DNA from: a virus
Length of the DNA stretch: 12,883 nucleotides
UHGV virus genome: UHGV-1313942
Direction: 5' to 3' (one strand)
Positions 2,569 to 7,909 of the stretch are shown piece by piece (within the stretch, counting starts at the first letter, position 1; each line of letters starts with the position of its first letter). A program made the position numbers and the translations under genes. The notes under the pieces were generated by a model. It made no database searches. It had not been told where the DNA came from and saw only the letters and a program-made list of their open reading frames with translations.

Positions 2569-2847
2569 TCAGGCCTCGAAGAATTCGCCGTTCTTCGGGG
2601 CTTTTTCTTTTGTCAGCATTCTGGCTACTTTCTTAGCCAGTTCCGCCAACTCCTCGTCTTCAACACCCCATTCAAGAACAGCCAGAAGCATTCCCATTTT
2701 TGGGATGAAGCTGTCTTTCCATCGCGAAATTTGCGATTCATTAATCCCTAACGCGTCGGCAACCTTTCGCTGACCACGTACAGCAATTCGATTCAGGATG
2801 TTGCTTGTAATTGCATTCGCTTTCTTGCGAGTACTTGTAAGTTGCAT
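2569..2847 (-). CDS. cII: CII-like transcriptional activator (lysogeny establishment)
   Basis: Track ORF 2569..2934 trimmed to the ATG at 2847 (AAGGA RBS about 11 nt upstream); the longer N-terminus would run through the nutR/tR1 region. SQISRWK...[10 protein letters not shown] closely matches lambda CII as I recall it ([25 protein letters not shown]). Position between cro and the replication genes is syntenic. Confidence 0.85.
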
Positions 2848-2905
2848 ATGTAAGTATTTCCTTAACAAATAAGAAGTTATGCGCATCAAATTATGCGCGT
2901 TGTAT

Positions 2906-2949
2906 TCCCGCATTTCGGCGGGAATGAGGACCATGACTGTTAAAGAGCG
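2906..2949 (-). promoter_or_regulatory. nutR antitermination site (boxA + boxB) between cro and cII
   Basis: Minus-strand boxA CGCTCTTTAACA (plus 2938-2949) matches the rrn/lambdoid boxA consensus; boxB hairpin UCCCGC-CGAAAU-GCGGGA (plus 2906-2923) is identical over 18 nt to the boxB upstream of N at 5874-5891. Confidence 0.75.
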
Positions 2950-2957
2950 GGTACTGC

Positions 2958-3176
2958 TTAGGCGGCTTTGTTACTGGATGGAGGGAAAACATCATCCAAA
3001 GAACATTGGCACCCTAACTTCCTGAGGCCTTCTACGATCATTCGGCAATCGTTAAGGCCAGGAGTACGGATATTCAGCTCATAGTTGGCGATGCGGGATT
3101 GCCCCCAACCAATTGCTGAAGCTAGTACAGCTTGCGAAACTCCGATTTTTTTTCGCTGCTGGGCAATTTTGTTCAT
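2958..3176 (-). CDS. cro: Cro-like HTH repressor (XRE family)
   Basis: Track ORF 2958..3215 trimmed to the ATG at 3176 (GGGAG RBS). 72 aa with HTH GVSQAVLASAIGWGQSRIANYE; first gene transcribed from the PR-like promoter, divergent from cI. Confidence 0.75.
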   Translation of the reverse strand: MNKIAQQRKKIGVSQAVLASAIGWGQSRIANYELNIRTPGLNDCRMIVEGLRKLGCQCSLDDVFPPSSNKAA

Positions 3177-3284
3177 TGCGGTCTCCCTAGCATTAATCAC
3201 ACACCCATTACACACAATTTGTGATTAACAGTCAACCTCAATTCGTGTACAGAGTTCAATCACGTTGCGTGTTACATTTAAGGG
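3177..3284. promoter_or_regulatory. OR region: PR (minus strand), PRM (plus strand) and repressor operators
   Basis: PR candidate on minus strand: -35 TTGACT (plus 3230-3235), 17-bp spacer, -10 TGTAAT (plus 3207-3212). The 12-bp palindrome-like CACAATTTGTGA (3213-3224) lies in the PR spacer; a weaker CACGTTGCGTGT copy is at 3261-3272. A possible PRM -10 TACATT (3273-3278) sits immediately upstream of the cI ATG. Confidence 0.7.
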
Positions 3285-3932
3285 ATGAAAACGATGCATG
3301 AAATTATCGGGGAAAGGATCAAGTCCCTTAGAGAAGCTAAAGGACTTAGCCAGGCTCAATTGGCCAAGCTTTGCGGCTGGGCTGCGCCTTCACGCCTGGG
3401 GAACTACGAGTTAGGAACAAGAAAGGTTAGCGCGGATGACGCGCTGGTTCTTGGGGCGGCACTCGGCGTATCTCCGGCAAAAATAATGTTTGGCGAGGAT
3501 TCAGACGCCGTATTTCGCCAATATGAATACCCGTTATTTTCTTCAGTGCAGGCCGGGCCATTTTCGGAGGTGGGAAGCTACACAGCCAGCGATGCAAAGG
3601 CATGGGTCCCAACGACCACAAAAGCCAGCGAAAAAGCTTTCTGGCTTGAGGTGAAGGGGCATTCAATGACGGCGCCTCAGGGGGTTCGTCCAAGTTTTCC
3701 GGAAGGCATGCTGATACTCGTTGATCCGGCTGAGCCGGTAGAGTCTGGGGATTTCTGCGTGGCTTCTGCAAATGGTGATTCAGAGGCAACGTTCAAGAAG
3801 TATGAGAAGGATGCAGGGGTTAGTTACCTGGTACCTTTAAACCCGGCATATAGAACACTGGATTGCGACCATAGCTGCCGCATCATAGGCAAGGTAGTTA
3901 AGGCGCAGTGGCCTGAAGAGACGTTTGGCTGA
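3285..3932 (+). CDS. cI: CI/C2-type prophage repressor with C-terminal S24 (LexA-like) autopeptidase domain
   Basis: N-terminal [25 protein letters not shown]; Ala-Gly cleavage site in SVQAGPF; S24 catalytic Ser in GHSM and Lys in FKK. The C-terminal half aligns with P22 C2 as I recall it. Start could be the ATG at 3285 (possibly leaderless) or 3294. Confidence 0.9.
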
Positions 3933-4082
3933 TCGGCAAGGTGTTCTGGTCGGCGCATAGCTGGTGAAAAAATTATTTAATGCGGTGTATTGGCTGATTG
4001 TAACCCCATGTAACATCTTGCCGTCACCATTTCGGTGGTTAGATTTTTAATAAAAAAAAACAAATGTATAGCAAGGTTTTTT

Positions 4083-4562
4083 ATGGATAAAATTAATTAC
4101 CCACCCCTGTTTGAGCCAGGGTTCCATGACATGGATGAAGCTGGATTAAAATCGTATTGTGTCGATTGCTTTCCTTCATCATCCAGGCGAGGCATGCTAT
4201 ACTGTAATTTTATACAGCTACTCGAATCTATTCGAGAATTATCTGCTCAATATGGCTGTTTTACAGAAATATGGGTTGATGGTTCATACACCACGTCTAA
4301 ACCAGAGCCTGATGATATTGATATTTTGTTGGTATGTGACTATAGCAATATAAACTCAATACCTGTCATGCTTCGGGGCCGCGTCGATAATTTGCTTGAC
4401 CGAAACTACATCAAACAAAACTACAAAATTGATGTCCTACTACTCATGAAGAATTTAGATGACCCTAACTATGATTATGAGTACTGGCGTAGCTACTGGC
4501 GCGGTTGGTTTGGTTTTGATCGCAGTGAAAACCCGAAAGGGTTAGTGAGGATTTTTTTATGA
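4083..4562 (+). CDS. Hypothetical protein with Pol-beta-superfamily nucleotidyltransferase signature (cargo gene 1)
   Basis: Track ORF 4035..4562 (GTG start) trimmed to the ATG at 4083 (AAGG RBS 6 nt upstream; the extension runs through an A9 tract). Residues 67-81 GSYTTSKPEPDDIDI fit the NTase motif hG[GS]-x9-13-Dh[DE]h (nt 4281-4325). AT-rich relative to flanks. Stop overlaps the next start (ATGA). Confidence 0.6.
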   Translation: MDKINYPPLFEPGFHDMDEAGLKSYCVDCFPSSSRRGMLYCNFIQLLESIRELSAQYGCFTEIWVDGSYTTSKPEPDDIDILLVCDYSNINSIPVMLRGRVDNLLDRNYIKQNYKIDVLLLMKNLDDPNYDYEYWRSYWRGWFGFDRSENPKGLVRIFL

Positions 4563-5491
4563 ATGATAAATCAATGTTTAAAAATTGCGATAAACGCATT
4601 GATTTCATTCAAAAAGAAGTCGATGCAATGAAGCAAAACAAAACCAGGTCCTTTGCTGACATGCTTCTTTATCGCTCCATGGATTCTCATCTGAGCGATT
4701 TGAAGGCCGAAAAATTAAAGCAAGATAGTCGGCACCCACTTATCGATTTTTTTGAGCTGCGGCTGAAAGGCTCTGAGGTTGACTTTGGCTCTATTCCTTT
4801 AGAGCTGCTTGGGGCTATTTCAACAAATCTTGCAGCGCTAATACAAAGAGCAACACACAAAATTGCCTCAGGCAAGGACTCAAAAAAAGTTCCCTACGAC
4901 GTGAAAAGCTCCTTAAACCTCAGGCTGGCTGATTTATCCCCTGGGTCTACAAAATTGGGCGTCACCTTCTCTACAGGAATAGCAGAATTAGTAGAAACAG
5001 TACCCAGCAAGGCTGTAAAAGGCATATTCGATTTGTTGTTAAGCGATGACGACAACAACTTCATGAATCACGTCGCTGAAATTGGATACAATTCCACTGT
5101 AAGCCTTAAGAGAATCGTAGAGGAATGCGATAAACACAACTTAACATTTGATGCAAGTTGGACCGGTCCATTTAGTAATGGCACCAAGGTGGCAACTATT
5201 GACTCCAATAAAATTAAGTACTTGGTGAGTAGACTTACATCAACCATTTCATCCCCTCCCATTACTGAAACGGTTACAGGCGAACTGGTCGTTCTATCCA
5301 AATATGGGAAGCTGGAGCTTGATGTTGGTGGTGAACATTTAAAGGCTTCCTATCCGATTGAAATGCTAGATTTAATACAAAAAAAACACAAGGTCGGACA
5401 GATTGTTTCTCTTTTAGTGGAGACTACTGAGATTCACAATGATCGCATAGGTCTGTACCGTAAAAACCATCTTGTTAAATCGGTTCTTTAA
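4559..5491 (+). CDS. Hypothetical 310-aa protein, no family recognised (cargo gene 2)
   Basis: Start ATG overlaps the upstream stop (ATGA at 4559-4562), implying translational coupling; AT-rich; followed directly by an intrinsic terminator. No transmembrane segment or catalytic motif that I recognise. Confidence 0.6.
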   Translation: MNDKSMFKNCDKRIDFIQKEVDAMKQNKTRSFADMLLYRSMDSHLSDLKAEKLKQDSRHPLIDFFELRLKGSEVDFGSIPLELLGAISTNLAALIQRATHKIASGKDSKKVPYDVKSSLNLRLADLSPGSTKLGVTFSTGIAELVETVPSKAVKGIFDLLLSDDDNNFMNHVAEIGYNSTVSLKRIVEECDKHNLTFDASWTGPFSNGTKVATIDSNKIKYLVSRLTSTISSPPITETVTGELVVLSKYGKLELDVGGEHLKASYPIEMLDLIQKKHKVGQIVSLLVETTEIHNDRIGLYRKNHLVKSVL

Positions 5492-5498
5492 TATCTCA

Positions 5499-5523
5499 CC
5501 CGGCCACCGCGCCGGGTTTTTTA
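5499..5523 (+). terminator. Rho-independent terminator ending the cI-cargo transcription unit (t_imm analogue)
   Basis: Stem CCCGGC (5499-5504) / GCCGGG (5511-5516), 6-nt loop, followed by TTTTTTATT (5517-5525); begins 8 nt after the stop at 5489-5491. Confidence 0.8.
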
Positions 5524-5735
5524 TTGTCCGCCGATCACTATCAGGACAGCACCTGCCAGCCGGTCCAAACAATTGATTAAATTACTATAATTCTTAATAC
5601 AACTCCCATATCCCGCCATCTCGCCACCACCACCTTCGCTCGTTTTTCGAACTTTTCAGCACCCATCCTGCTGTTGCCACCGACTTAAGTAAGCAAAACC
5701 ATCGCGGGTAAAACTATTTACACAAAAAAATCATA

Positions 5736-5803
5736 CACATAACGTGTCACACCTTTATTTTACACATTTTGTGATTGACCATTAAATCACAATATGTGAC
5801 TAT
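5736..5803 (+). promoter_or_regulatory. OL/PL region: leftward early promoter with repressor operators
   Basis: Candidate PL: -35 TTGACC (5775-5780), 17-bp spacer, -10 GACTAT (5798-5803). Operator-like 12-mers CACATTTTGTGA (5763-5774) and CACAATATGTGA (5788-5799) match the OR site CACAATTTGTGA; weaker CACATAACGTGT at 5736-5747. Sites are spaced about 25-27 bp apart. Confidence 0.65.
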
Positions 5804-5849
5804 CATTTCCATCAGCAGGACGCTGGTAGCCAAACGGAACATATTGGCA

Positions 5850-5891
5850 GGCTCTTTAACATTGATGGGATTGTCCCGCCGAAATGCGGGA
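5850..5891 (+). promoter_or_regulatory. nutL antitermination site (boxA + boxB)
   Basis: boxA GCTCTTTAACA (5851-5861) and boxB hairpin TCCCGC-CGAAAT-GCGGGA (5874-5891); both identical to the minus-strand nutR elements at 2906-2949. Lies downstream of PL and upstream of N. Confidence 0.75.
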
Positions 5892-6249
5892 ACTGAGTTT
5901 AACAAAACAGGAGGTGCCGTAATGGTGCACTAACGCGGTTAGACCGCAGCCGAAAGGCAATGCAGCAGTAATGATGCTGCCCCGAGTCGCGTAATGGCGA
6001 GCAGGTTTAGCAGACCGATGTGAGGGTAAATAAGGGAACATGCTCCGGAAAGGCAGCGCGAATGCCAGACGCGCACCGGTTATCAGCGGCTAATAAGCGA
6101 CAGAGACTCAAGGGCATGAGCGCGCTCACTGCGAGAGTGTGAGTCAAAGAGTAGTTGGCTTTGGGGTGACGTGAAGTGCAGCTGCACGACGGCAACCGGA
6201 AGATAAGCACCCGGCGCGTCACCGCCAAAGTCAATCATCGGAGGTCAAC

Positions 6250-6522
6250 ATGACAGTAGTCATTACATATCTGGCTGACGATAACGCCAGAAATCGCCGC
6301 AGAGCACGCAGACAGGCTCAACGTGAACAGGCAATGCAAGAGCAGCGACTGGCACGAAAAATTGCGCTAAAGCTCTCTGGTTGCGTCAGAGCAGATAAAG
6401 CAGCATCACTCGGAAGCCTTTGCTGCAAGGAAGAAGATGAACGCAGTGGAAGTATTTGCCTGCCAAACGTAGCCATTTACGCGGCAGGATACCGGAAATC
6501 AAAACAACTGACAGCGAGGTAA
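6250..6522 (+). CDS. N: N-family transcription antiterminator (P22 gene 24-like)
   Basis: 90 aa; N-terminal arginine-rich motif NARNRRRARRQAQREQ typical of boxB-binding N proteins; first gene downstream of PL/nutL; GGAGG RBS 7 nt upstream. C-terminal ...LPNVAIYAAGYRKSKQLTAR resembles my recollection of P22 gp24. Confidence 0.8.
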   Translation: MTVVITYLADDNARNRRRARRQAQREQAMQEQRLARKIALKLSGCVRADKAASLGSLCCKEEDERSGSICLPNVAIYAAGYRKSKQLTAR

Positions 6523-7266: not shown

Positions 7267-7291
7267 AGGCCGCATAGTCGGCCTTTATTTT
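7267..7291 (+). terminator. Rho-independent terminator (tL1-like) after the membrane-protein gene
   Basis: Stem AGGCCG (7267-7272) / CGGCCT (7279-7284), loop CATAGT, followed by the T-rich tract TTTATTTT. Confidence 0.7.
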
Positions 7292-7314
7292 GGGCATAAA
7301 CAACAGAGGTGAAT

Positions 7315-7885: not shown

Positions 7886-7909
7886 GCCCTCCAGTGTGAG
7901 GGCTTTTTT
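7886..7909 (+). terminator. Rho-independent terminator upstream of cIII (tL-like; read-through would require N antitermination)
   Basis: Stem GCCCTC (7886-7891) / GAGGGC (7898-7903), loop CAGTGT, followed by TTTTTT (7904-7909). Confidence 0.75.

Follow-up and report, generated by a model that had tools for sequence, protein, structure and literature searches.

The window, a stretch of viral DNA of 12,883 nt that was analysed as a whole, carries two short repeats on opposite strands, and the question raised by this locus is whether they represent paired nut sites for a phage N protein and, if so, of which specificity. As judged from the sequence, the region very probably controls the early genes of a lambdoid prophage, with the repeats as its nutR and nutL for N.

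Paired repeats in the early control region

The composite pattern GCTCTTTAACA-N(8-20)-TCCCGCCGAAATGCGGGA matched the window exactly twice, once on the minus strand (2906-2948) and once on the plus strand (5851-5891), and none of 200 dinucleotide-preserving shuffles contained a match. This bears out an earlier note on this DNA, which had described a duplicated boxA with an identical boxB on opposite strands. The minus-strand copy was placed there at 2906-2949; this needs a small correction, as its end lies at 2948, or at 2949 with the preceding C of CGCTCTTTAACA counted in. BoxA alone was a weaker signal, with two or more hits in 10 of the 200 shuffles, and no additional copy of the 18-nt boxB could be found in the window with three mismatches allowed. 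The four elements, all obtained by pattern match, were as follows.

2906-2923, minus strand: nutR boxB, UCCCGC-CGAAAU-GCGGGA (supported by fold; identical to the annotated nutR of HK620)
2938-2949, minus strand: nutR boxA, CGCUCUUUAACA (supported by alignment)
5850-5861, plus strand: nutL boxA, GGCUCUUUAACA (supported by alignment)
5874-5891, plus strand: nutL boxB, UCCCGC-CGAAAU-GCGGGA (supported by fold; identical to the annotated nutL of HK620)

The repeat finder returned only two short inverted pairs, 19 nt long at 100% identity (boxB) and 18 nt long at 89% (boxA with the start of the spacer). The spacers between boxA and boxB differ, being 14 nt at one site and 12 nt at the other, so the element is not a piece of a larger repeat, an outcome that the earlier note had named as fatal to its reading. 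The boxA agrees with the NusB/NusE consensus, since GCUCUUUAACA equals the rrn boxA plus the first spacer bases (rrn boxA-spacer ugcucuuuaaca...; PMC2724277). The claim of an rrn-type boxA is correct to this extent, but it does not set the window apart, as P22 carries the rrn-type CGCUCUUUA at both nutL and nutR, and phi21-type phages carry GCUCUUUAACA. When both boxB elements were folded, as had been suggested, the hairpin formed in both native contexts, with a 6-bp stem, a 6-nt loop and a free energy of -9.7 kcal/mol. A T-run follows it at neither site.

The surrounding genes and signals could be arranged as follows.

2569-2850, minus strand: cII (Pfam Phage_CII, 1.9e-42)
2881-2898, minus strand: hairpin GCGCAU-AAUUUG-AUGCGC followed by a U-rich stretch, in the tR1 position between nutR and cII (fold; the tR1 of HK620 is annotated at the homologous place)
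2958-3176, minus strand: cro, an ORF of 72 aa (Pfam HTH_3, 8.8e-8; homologous to cro of VT1-Sakai and mEpX1)
3207-3235, minus strand: promoter PR, -35 TTGACT at 3230-3235, 17-nt spacer, -10 TGTAAT at 3207-3212 (read from the sequence)
3285-3932, plus strand: cI repressor, HTH and Peptidase_S24 (Pfam; region 99% identical in mEpX1)
5498-5524, plus strand: intrinsic terminator ending the cI/PRM transcript, tIMM (terminator scan; homologous feature annotated in VT1-Sakai)
5775-5803, plus strand: promoter PL, -35 TTGACC, 17-nt spacer, -10 GACTAT, with overlapping operators (sequence; identical to the annotated PL of VT1-Sakai)
6250-6522, plus strand: N antiterminator, 90 aa, Shine-Dalgarno GGAGG at 6240-6244 (Pfam N_peptide PF25694)
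7267-7294, plus strand: tL1-like intrinsic terminator of the PL operon, 7267-7284 and then a T-run (terminator scan, fold)
7886-7909, plus strand: tL2-like intrinsic terminator of the PL operon, 7886-7903 and then a T-run (terminator scan, fold z = -2.8)

PR was not listed by a simple promoter scan; its position agrees with that of the annotated PR of the VT1-Sakai immunity region, which is 98% identical. Both nut sites are in transcript sense, one after PL and the other after PR and cro. NutR is situated in the gap between cro, which stops at 2958, and cII, which starts at 2850, while nutL is located approximately 40 nt downstream of PL, its boxA being approximately 41 nt from the inferred PL start. 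The first gene needing read-through past nutR and tR1 is cII. As a candidate terminator, the hairpin in the tR1 position is weak, and a tR1 that depends on Rho is invisible in sequence. The terminators previously claimed near 7267 and 7886 were both recovered, and the terminator scan found no intrinsic terminator on the plus strand between nutL and N. A tRNA-Ala call by ARAGORN at 3483-3565 was dismissed, as it falls inside cI.

The N protein and a natural exchange of specificity determinants

The predicted N protein matched Pfam N_peptide PF25694 at 5.1e-15 with 56 bits, against a cutoff of 27.9, and contains the arginine-rich motif DDNARNRRRARRQAQREQA at approximately residues 10-28. The alignment proposed in the earlier note was made with the N proteins of HK620, phi21-type phages, lambda, Hafnia yong1 and related N, while the P22 N was translated separately. 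The motif lined up with AQTRRRERRAEKQAQ of lambda, sharing the lambda core A-x-x-RRR-x-RR, and with that of phi21-type N; the P22 motif reads GNAKTRRHERRRKLAIERD. The window also has the gene order and nut positions of lambda and the same boxA-spacer-boxB layout. Thus an arginine-rich N, two nut sites, a consensus boxA and downstream terminators, the elements of a lambda-type N/nut system, were all present.

In the proposed mechanism, the PR and PL transcripts would each carry boxA as the NusB/NusE element, a spacer of 12-14 nt and the boxB hairpin, the last of which would be bound by the arginine-rich N-terminus of N through the motif (D/S)DNA(R/K)NRRRA(R/K)R. N would then ride on RNA polymerase with NusA, NusB, NusE and NusG, so that terminators are ignored, both the Nus dependence and the read-through being predicted features. 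The terminators overridden would be the tR1-position hairpin before cII-O-P in the right arm and those at 7267 and 7886 in the left arm.

The strongest evidence for the N/nut reading is a natural swap, in which boxB(L), boxB(R) and the arginine motif have been replaced jointly. The phi21-type phages mEpX1 and VT1-Sakai have the same immunity region, PL, PR and boxA as the window, with cI, cro, OL/PL and OR/PR being 98-99% identical, and their N leader and N core from residue 34 onwards are homologous to those of the window. The window differs from them only at boxB(L), boxB(R) and N residues 1-33. In mEpX1 and VT1-Sakai, the nutL boxB is of the phi21 type, UCUCAAC-CUAACC-GUUGAGA, with a 7-bp stem, the nutR boxB is CACCUCUAACCGGGUGAG and the arginine motif is GTAKSRYKARRAELIAERR. 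These boxB sequences and this motif are unrelated to those of the window, although the loop size of 6 nt is common to both. Neither the CUAACC loop on a UCUCAAC or CACCU stem nor GTAKSRYKARRAELIAERR, which define the phi21 class, was found in the window. The comparison provides a clean natural example of three specificity determinants exchanged together in an otherwise identical immunity module. The lambda-type layout claimed in the earlier note is supported by this joint change, together with the positions and sense of the nut sites, the N_peptide match and the downstream terminators.

Specificity class and the boxB loop

On sequence grounds, the nutL, nutR and N arginine motif of the window are not new but match those of HK620, which have been annotated since 2001. 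In HK620 (AF335538; also in mEpX2, Stx2c phages, ECP1 and N7), boxA, spacer and boxB of both nutL and nutR are identical to those of the window, as are N residues 1-57, and the hairpin in the tR1 region is the same; the AF335538 annotation labels these identical sequences nutL, nutR, tR1 and N. As the nut sites are base for base those annotated in HK620, the finding itself is an ordinary one. Unlike HK620, the window has an immunity region of the mEpX1/VT1-Sakai type between its nut sites and a 251-nt RNA element between the nutL boxB and the N leader. With UCCCGCCGAAAUGCGGGA at both nut sites and an N beginning with MTVVITYLADDNARNRRRARRQAQREQA, the window can be assigned to the HK620 N-boxB specificity class, in which a GC-rich CCGC/GCGG stem is topped by C-GAAA-U. 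Early regulation of the prophage is thereby placed in this class, and otherwise little is changed.

Of the 80 viral contigs whose N is at least 93% identical to this one, 73 carry the exact boxB in both orientations, and these span at least three immunity types, with immunity regions of at least three sizes. Three related loci had no nutR; in one (L026) this was traced to a truncated prophage and not to a mismatched nut pair, and the other two (L072 and L089) had no boxA-like nutR. The same arginine motif occurs on three unrelated C-terminal modules, always with a boxB of the same kind. The CGAAAU loop is identical in HK620, the window, mEpX2 and L122, and reads AGUAAU in a Chimaeribacter relative (L108). 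The boxB is invariant throughout the HK620-type set, so stem covariation is absent within the class and support comes from between-class comparisons. No experiment on an HK620-type N-boxB pair could be found in the searchable literature, and the case for the predicted binding and read-through is thus built from homology and co-variation.

The lambda and P22 loops, read directly from sequence, have 5 nt (GAAAA/GAAGA or GACAA) on a 5-bp stem, whereas the window leaves six nucleotides, CGAAAU, unpaired. The lambda nutL, CGCUCUUA ... GCCCU-GAAGA-AGGGC, shares with the window a purine-rich, GNRA-like boxB loop. It differs in its 5-bp GCCCU stem, against a 6-bp CCGC-rich stem, in its pentaloop (GAAGA/GAAAA), against C-GAAA-U, and in its shorter spacer of 8-9 nt, against 12-14 nt; the window boxA also has the additional U of the rrn consensus. 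The N position of the window aligned with Trp18 of lambda is not aromatic. In P22, the nutR boxB, CCGC-C-GACAA-C-GCGG, has the same CCGC/GCGG stem and pyrimidine-pyrimidine flank, the nutL spacer UUCGAUGAU resembles UUGAUGG of the window and the N C-terminus, ...YAAGHRKSKQITAR, is homologous to that of the window N. The 5-nt GACAA loop of P22 and the arginine motif of its gp24 are both unlike those of the window.

From these comparisons, the boxB loop of the window is probably to be read as GAAA, a GNRA tetraloop, with C·U on its flanks. An alternative is that the nut sites are functional but boxB forms a true hexaloop as in phi21, with recognition unrelated to that of lambda and P22. The thermodynamic fold, which leaves six bases unpaired, and the 6-nt loop of phi21-type boxB are in agreement with this. 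A GNRA-type loop is indicated by the Chimaeribacter relative, whose arginine motif is near-identical and whose AGUAAU folds as a GUAA tetraloop closed by A-U, by the P22 nutR, where the same stem and flank surround a GNRA-like loop, and by the alignment of the arginine motif with A-x-x-RRR-x-RR of lambda, so that the hexaloop appears unlikely, though still to be reckoned with. The earlier note had taken the 6-nt loop as a sign of a distinct N-boxB specificity; that specificity appears real, but the HK620 class was already annotated and a 6-nt loop is also present in phi21-type phages. The C·U-flanked GNRA tetraloop predicted for the HK620 class would be a useful fourth case of an arginine motif and its RNA after lambda, P22 and phi21.

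Two further explanations deny boxB its role as the target of N. The repeat may lack a function of its own and be a recombination scar or homology at a module boundary, conserved only for flanking exchangeable modules. Mosaic joints against mEpX1/VT1-Sakai do occur inside the nut spacer at ~2927 and directly after PL, so homology at the level of boxA could serve as a crossover point, and such a role is compatible with nut function and does not exclude it. On its own, a scar is highly improbable, leaving unexplained why an exact 18-nt hairpin stands in transcript sense in each arm, why it is 100% conserved in 73 of the 80 loci and why boxB stays coupled to one arginine motif although the C-terminal modules differ. 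Slightly less probable still is that the hairpins are protein-independent RNAs of the HK022 put type, or duplicated stabilising or terminator hairpins: stable GC-rich hairpins do lie directly downstream of both early promoters, the positions at which HK022-type phages use RNA-only antitermination, but put RNAs are two-stem structures of ~70 nt in phages with no N gene, whereas the window has at each site a single 18-nt hairpin that has a consensus boxA ahead of it, spaced as in nut sites, and no T-run after it, with a bona fide N gene shortly downstream whose arginine motif changes in step with boxB.

An inserted structured RNA after nutL

Returning to the reading of the repeats as nut sites for N, the unexpected item, which is unannotated and is the part of the locus deserving follow-up, lies directly after the nutL boxB.

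5894-6144, plus strand: 251-nt insertion in the N leader (alignment with phages without the insert)

The alignment showed the insert to be missing from HK620, mEpX2, mEpX1 and VT1-Sakai. It consists of a Shine-Dalgarno sequence (5909-5914), a mini-ORF AUG-GUG-CAC-UAA (5922-5933), a multi-helix RNA and a terminal hairpin (6125-6143). Its copies form a covarying structured RNA with a conserved mini-ORF, made up of a Shine-Dalgarno sequence, AUG, zero to three codons and a stop that abuts the first hairpin; 3' of this, a multi-helix junction of ~200 nt with invariant loops could be recognised. The insert is widespread in enterobacterial phages and plasmids, its copies being oriented with the transcript and placed in leaders of operons that undergo processive antitermination on enterobacterial mobile elements. 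They are located after nutL, after the terminator following Q, between the lysis and terminase genes and, on conjugative plasmids, downstream of a NusG paralogue and ahead of the pil operon.

A search of the whole window against Rfam 15 gave no match at E<=1, and a search of 421 nt (5840-6260) at E<=10 gave three hits and no others, all due to chance, with 10-13 bits where the gathering scores are at least 40. No description of the insert was found in the literature searched. We consider the chances to be even that 5894-6144 belongs to an undescribed and widespread class of structured RNA, combining a mini-ORF with a multi-helix structure in the leaders of antiterminated operons. Should it indeed be undescribed, a common structured RNA that carries its own mini-ORF would have to be added to what is known of temperate phages and conjugative plasmids.

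Other identities of the insert were considered. A protein-coding gene is unlikely, given single-base indels among the copies and compensatory changes in pairs. A group I intron was considered because the insertion is clean, and was rejected since the bases on either side do not fit, the 5' exon ending in a base other than U, since every context is non-coding and since the Rfam intron models were unmatched. A riboswitch was rejected as the insert is followed by neither a terminator nor an SD-sequestering platform, and as the genes downstream of it are variable. As candidate roles, the insert may serve as a leader that engages ribosomes and conditions long antiterminated transcripts, or as an RNA acting in trans that is produced only in lytic growth or transfer. 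The distance from nutL to the N start is 358 nt in the window with the insert, compared to 107 nt in HK620; this lengthening might alter the autoregulation of N, while nut function should be unaffected.

Early control region and the paired nut sites

The window is a lambdoid prophage early control region, and the following features could be located.

70–1521 (−), DnaB-type helicase
1496–2395 (−), O-like replication gene
2569–2850 (−), cII (Pfam Phage_CII, 1.9e-42)
2881–2898 (−), hairpin with a U-rich tail after nutR, at the place of tR1 in the HK620 annotation
2906–2948 (−), nutR
2958–3176 (−), cro (HTH_3)
3207–3235 (−), PR, TTGACT-17-TGTAAT (pattern match)
3285–3932 (+), cI (HTH plus Peptidase_S24)
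4083–4562 and 4559–5491 (+), two accessory genes at the rexAB position
5498–5517 (+), intrinsic terminator (pattern match)
5775–5803 (+), PL, TTGACC-17-GACTAT (pattern match)
5851–5891 (+), nutL
6250–6522 (+), N (Pfam N_peptide, 5.1e-15)
7267–7284 and 7886–7903 (+), downstream intrinsic terminators (pattern match)

Both promoters coincide with promoters annotated in VT1-Sakai, where the region concerned is 98% identical to the window. The paired boxA-boxB repeat described in the earlier note was exact: GCTCTTTAACA followed after 12–14 nt by TCCCGCCGAAATGCGGGA was present at nutR and nutL with no third copy in the window, and the composite pattern was matched in 0 of 200 shuffles. The nut elements are not part of a larger repeat, because the arms common to both sites were a 19-nt boxB (100%) and an 18-nt boxA (89%), and nothing longer. 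The boxB hairpin folded with a 6-bp stem and a 6-nt loop (−9.7 kcal/mol), and it also formed in both native contexts. The nutR site falls in the cro–cII gap, past the cro stop and before the cII start; the nutL boxA begins approximately 41 nt from the inferred PL start; a pattern scan of the plus strand between nutL and N found no intrinsic terminator.

Three further features of the region were also observed. The gene pair between cI and PL, the first member of which is Pfam DUF6932, matched the PADLOC candidate defence system PDC-M63 (A, 1.8e-41; B, 7.5e-45), and the same pair is carried by mEpX1. Direct repeats GTGGTAATTTGCTGGTAATCTGCTGGTACA at 1908–2008, within the O-like replication gene, are probably ori iterons by comparison with the annotation in O genes of related phages. 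An 83-nt tRNA-Ala(cgc) called by ARAGORN at 3483–3565 (+) lies inside the cI coding sequence and is almost certainly a false positive.

Specificity class of the N-boxB pair

The nut/N finding is real and correctly interpreted, and its annotation in a sequenced phage dates from 2001: the HK620 record AF335538 carries nutL, nutR, tR1, N and tL1–tL2. In HK620 and mEpX2, nutL and nutR equal those of the window base for base, and N begins with the same N-terminus, MTVVITYLADDNARNRRRARRQAQREQAMQ. Among 80 IMG/VR loci encoding the window-type N at ≥93% identity, the exact boxB was present in both orientations in 73; nutR was missing from three loci, and the one examined was a truncated prophage. The HK620-type nut pair occurs in several immunity types, because the nut-to-nut spacing was approximately 1155, 1696 or 1740 nt in these loci versus 2968 nt in the window. 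The window-type arginine motif was fused to three different C-terminal modules, and a CCGC/GCGG stem with an N-GNAA-U loop was kept in boxB with all three.

C-terminal modules of N joined to the window-type arginine motif, with the boxB of each
HK620 and window; phi21/HK620-like; UCCCGC-CGAAAU-GCGGGA
mEpX2 and comparison locus L122; P22-like (...TAR); UCCCGC-CGAAAU-GCGGGA, in L122 UUCCCGC-CGAAAU-GCGGGGAA
Chimaeribacter locus L108; lambda-like (...GKSIPLI); CUCCGC-AGUAAU-GCGGGG

A natural swap could be recognised against mEpX1 and VT1-Sakai, to which cI, cro and both operator regions were 98–99% identical by megablast. Their annotated nut sites carry phi21-type boxB (nutL TCTCAACCTAACCGTTGAGA, nutR CACCTCTAACCGGGTGAG), and their N starts with MVTIVWKESKGTAKSRYKARRAELIAERR. 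On the left arm, PL and boxA were identical, the alignment diverged exactly at boxB, and homology resumed in the N leader; N itself was diverged over codons 1–33 and near-identical from LARKIALKLSGCVRADKAAS onward. The right arm was identical from cro through boxA to half of the spacer, with the break at boxB. Since divergence was confined to these segments, both boxB elements and the arginine motif were exchanged jointly while their surroundings were kept, which is what a cognate peptide-RNA pair would predict. The N-antitermination reading of the nut sites thus appears right, as judged from their position, from homology and from between-class co-variation. The mosaic joints relative to these two phages fall at approximately 2927 in the nut spacer and at approximately 5830–5870 just past PL; the exchanged segment of N is codons 1–33 (6250–6348). 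Retention of homology in boxA and the N leader next to a swapped boxB and arginine motif suggests that boxA-level homology provides a crossover point.

The boxA was correctly described as the rrn form: it matches the rrn boxA UGCUCUUUA (with spacer, ugcucuuuaacaauuua), from which lambda CGCUCUUA differs (PMC2724277). The P22 boxA (CGCUCUUUAAC and CGCUCUUUACC) and that of phi21-type phages are also of rrn form, and the phi21-type boxB loop is likewise 6 nt, so that neither the boxA nor the loop size is new. The window loop would most economically be read as GAAA, a canonical GNRA tetraloop with a C·U mismatch on its flanks, which would make it a lambda/P22-type variant and not a phi21-like hexaloop. 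In the fold of the Chimaeribacter boxB, an A-U pair closes a GUAA tetraloop. The P22 nutR boxB (positions 2438–2471 of the P22 sequence) reads ACCGC-C-GACAA-C-GCGGU, with the CCGC/GCGG stem of the window and a GNRA-like pentaloop flanked by C·C; this pentaloop resembles the C·U-flanked GAAA. The lambda nutL boxB is GCCCU-GAAGA-AGGGC, and lambda N shares the core A-x-x-RRR-x-RR with the window motif, whereas the position aligned to lambda Trp18 has no aromatic residue. The literature search found neither structure or binding data for the window-type boxB nor experimental work on the HK620-type N-boxB pair.

A structured RNA element downstream of nutL

Compared with HK620, the window carries a 251-nt insertion at 5894–6144 (+) that separates boxB (...GCGGGAAC) from the conserved N-leader sequence CAAAGAGTAGTTGGCTTTGGGG; it was missing from HK620, mEpX2, mEpX1 and VT1-Sakai. 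RNAalifold analysis of 37 diverse copies revealed helices with compensatory changes. A structure of 37 pairs was drawn by hand, and 91% of its cells pair, with double changes at 18 pairs (71 cells); none of 500 shuffles reached any measure, and slid controls lowered the paired share to 24–45%. The same pattern emerged independently from an alignment of 129 unique copies, e.g., CG/GC/UA/UG at several positions of four helices. The blocks GCACCGGUUAU-AGCGGC and CUCAAGGGCAUGAGCG were invariant among copies retrieved with a pattern requiring parts of these blocks. On this covariation, the insert is judged to be a genuine structured RNA; with no Rfam 15 match for a 421-nt slice even at E≤10, and no published description found in an open-access text corpus, it may be undescribed as measured against these two sources.

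Approximately 32 of the 37 copies started with a mini-ORF, in which a Shine-Dalgarno sequence was followed 5–11 nt on by AUG and 0–3 sense codons. The codons were not conserved (MVH, MKH, MHQ, MV, M), and in most copies the stop fell 0–8 nt before the first hairpin. In the window these elements were:

5909–5914 (+), Shine-Dalgarno AGGAGG
5922–5933 (+), mini-ORF AUG-GUG-CAC-UAA

The insert was non-coding and unannotated in all phage records opened except Klebsiella RothC, where hypothetical CDSs are annotated on the opposite strand. Its identity in phages was 99% in mEp213, 88% in Stx2c phages, 83% in Hafnia yong1 and Providencia PSTCR7lys, 80% in Klebsiella RothC/D and 78% in E. coli vB_EcoS-733R5. 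It was present in 113 of 5,426 complete E. coli genomes, 22 plasmids (Pantoea, Rahnella, Erwinia, Pectobacterium, Klebsiella, Yersinia and others), 32 GTDB representative genomes, chiefly of Enterobacterales genera, more than 120 IMG/VR contigs among the matches listed, and 9 of the 80 HK620-type N loci. In the annotated records opened, it was oriented in the same sense as the adjoining operon genes. It followed nutL sites of no fewer than four boxB types (window, Hafnia, Chimaeribacter, Pseudocitrobacter), lay directly 3′ of a terminator hairpin downstream of Q in RothC and many genomes, and occurred between the lysis genes and terminase as a further position.

Copies were also found on plasmids, mobilizable or conjugative, that carry pilus-assembly genes; there the element precedes the pil operon. 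On a Pectobacterium and a Pantoea plasmid (L126 and L127; one mobilizable, one conjugative MPF_I), the element follows a hypothetical gene of approximately 210–220 aa and is closely followed by the type IV pilus (pil) operon; a NusG paralogue lies upstream of it on the Pectobacterium plasmid, one of the two examined. These settings suggest the leader of a processively antiterminated operon.

In mEp213, a single early-left operon has two annotated N genes (873–1205 and 2358–2630). Upstream of the second, HK620-like N lie the RNA element and a degenerate boxB GCCCUCCGAAAUGCGGGAAC, at which no recognisable boxA was found. Whether or not they carry the insert, HK620-type and several other N leaders conserve the segment CAAAGAGUAGUUGGCUUUG (window 6145–6163, +) downstream of nutL; this segment could form a CAAAG/CUUUG hairpin.
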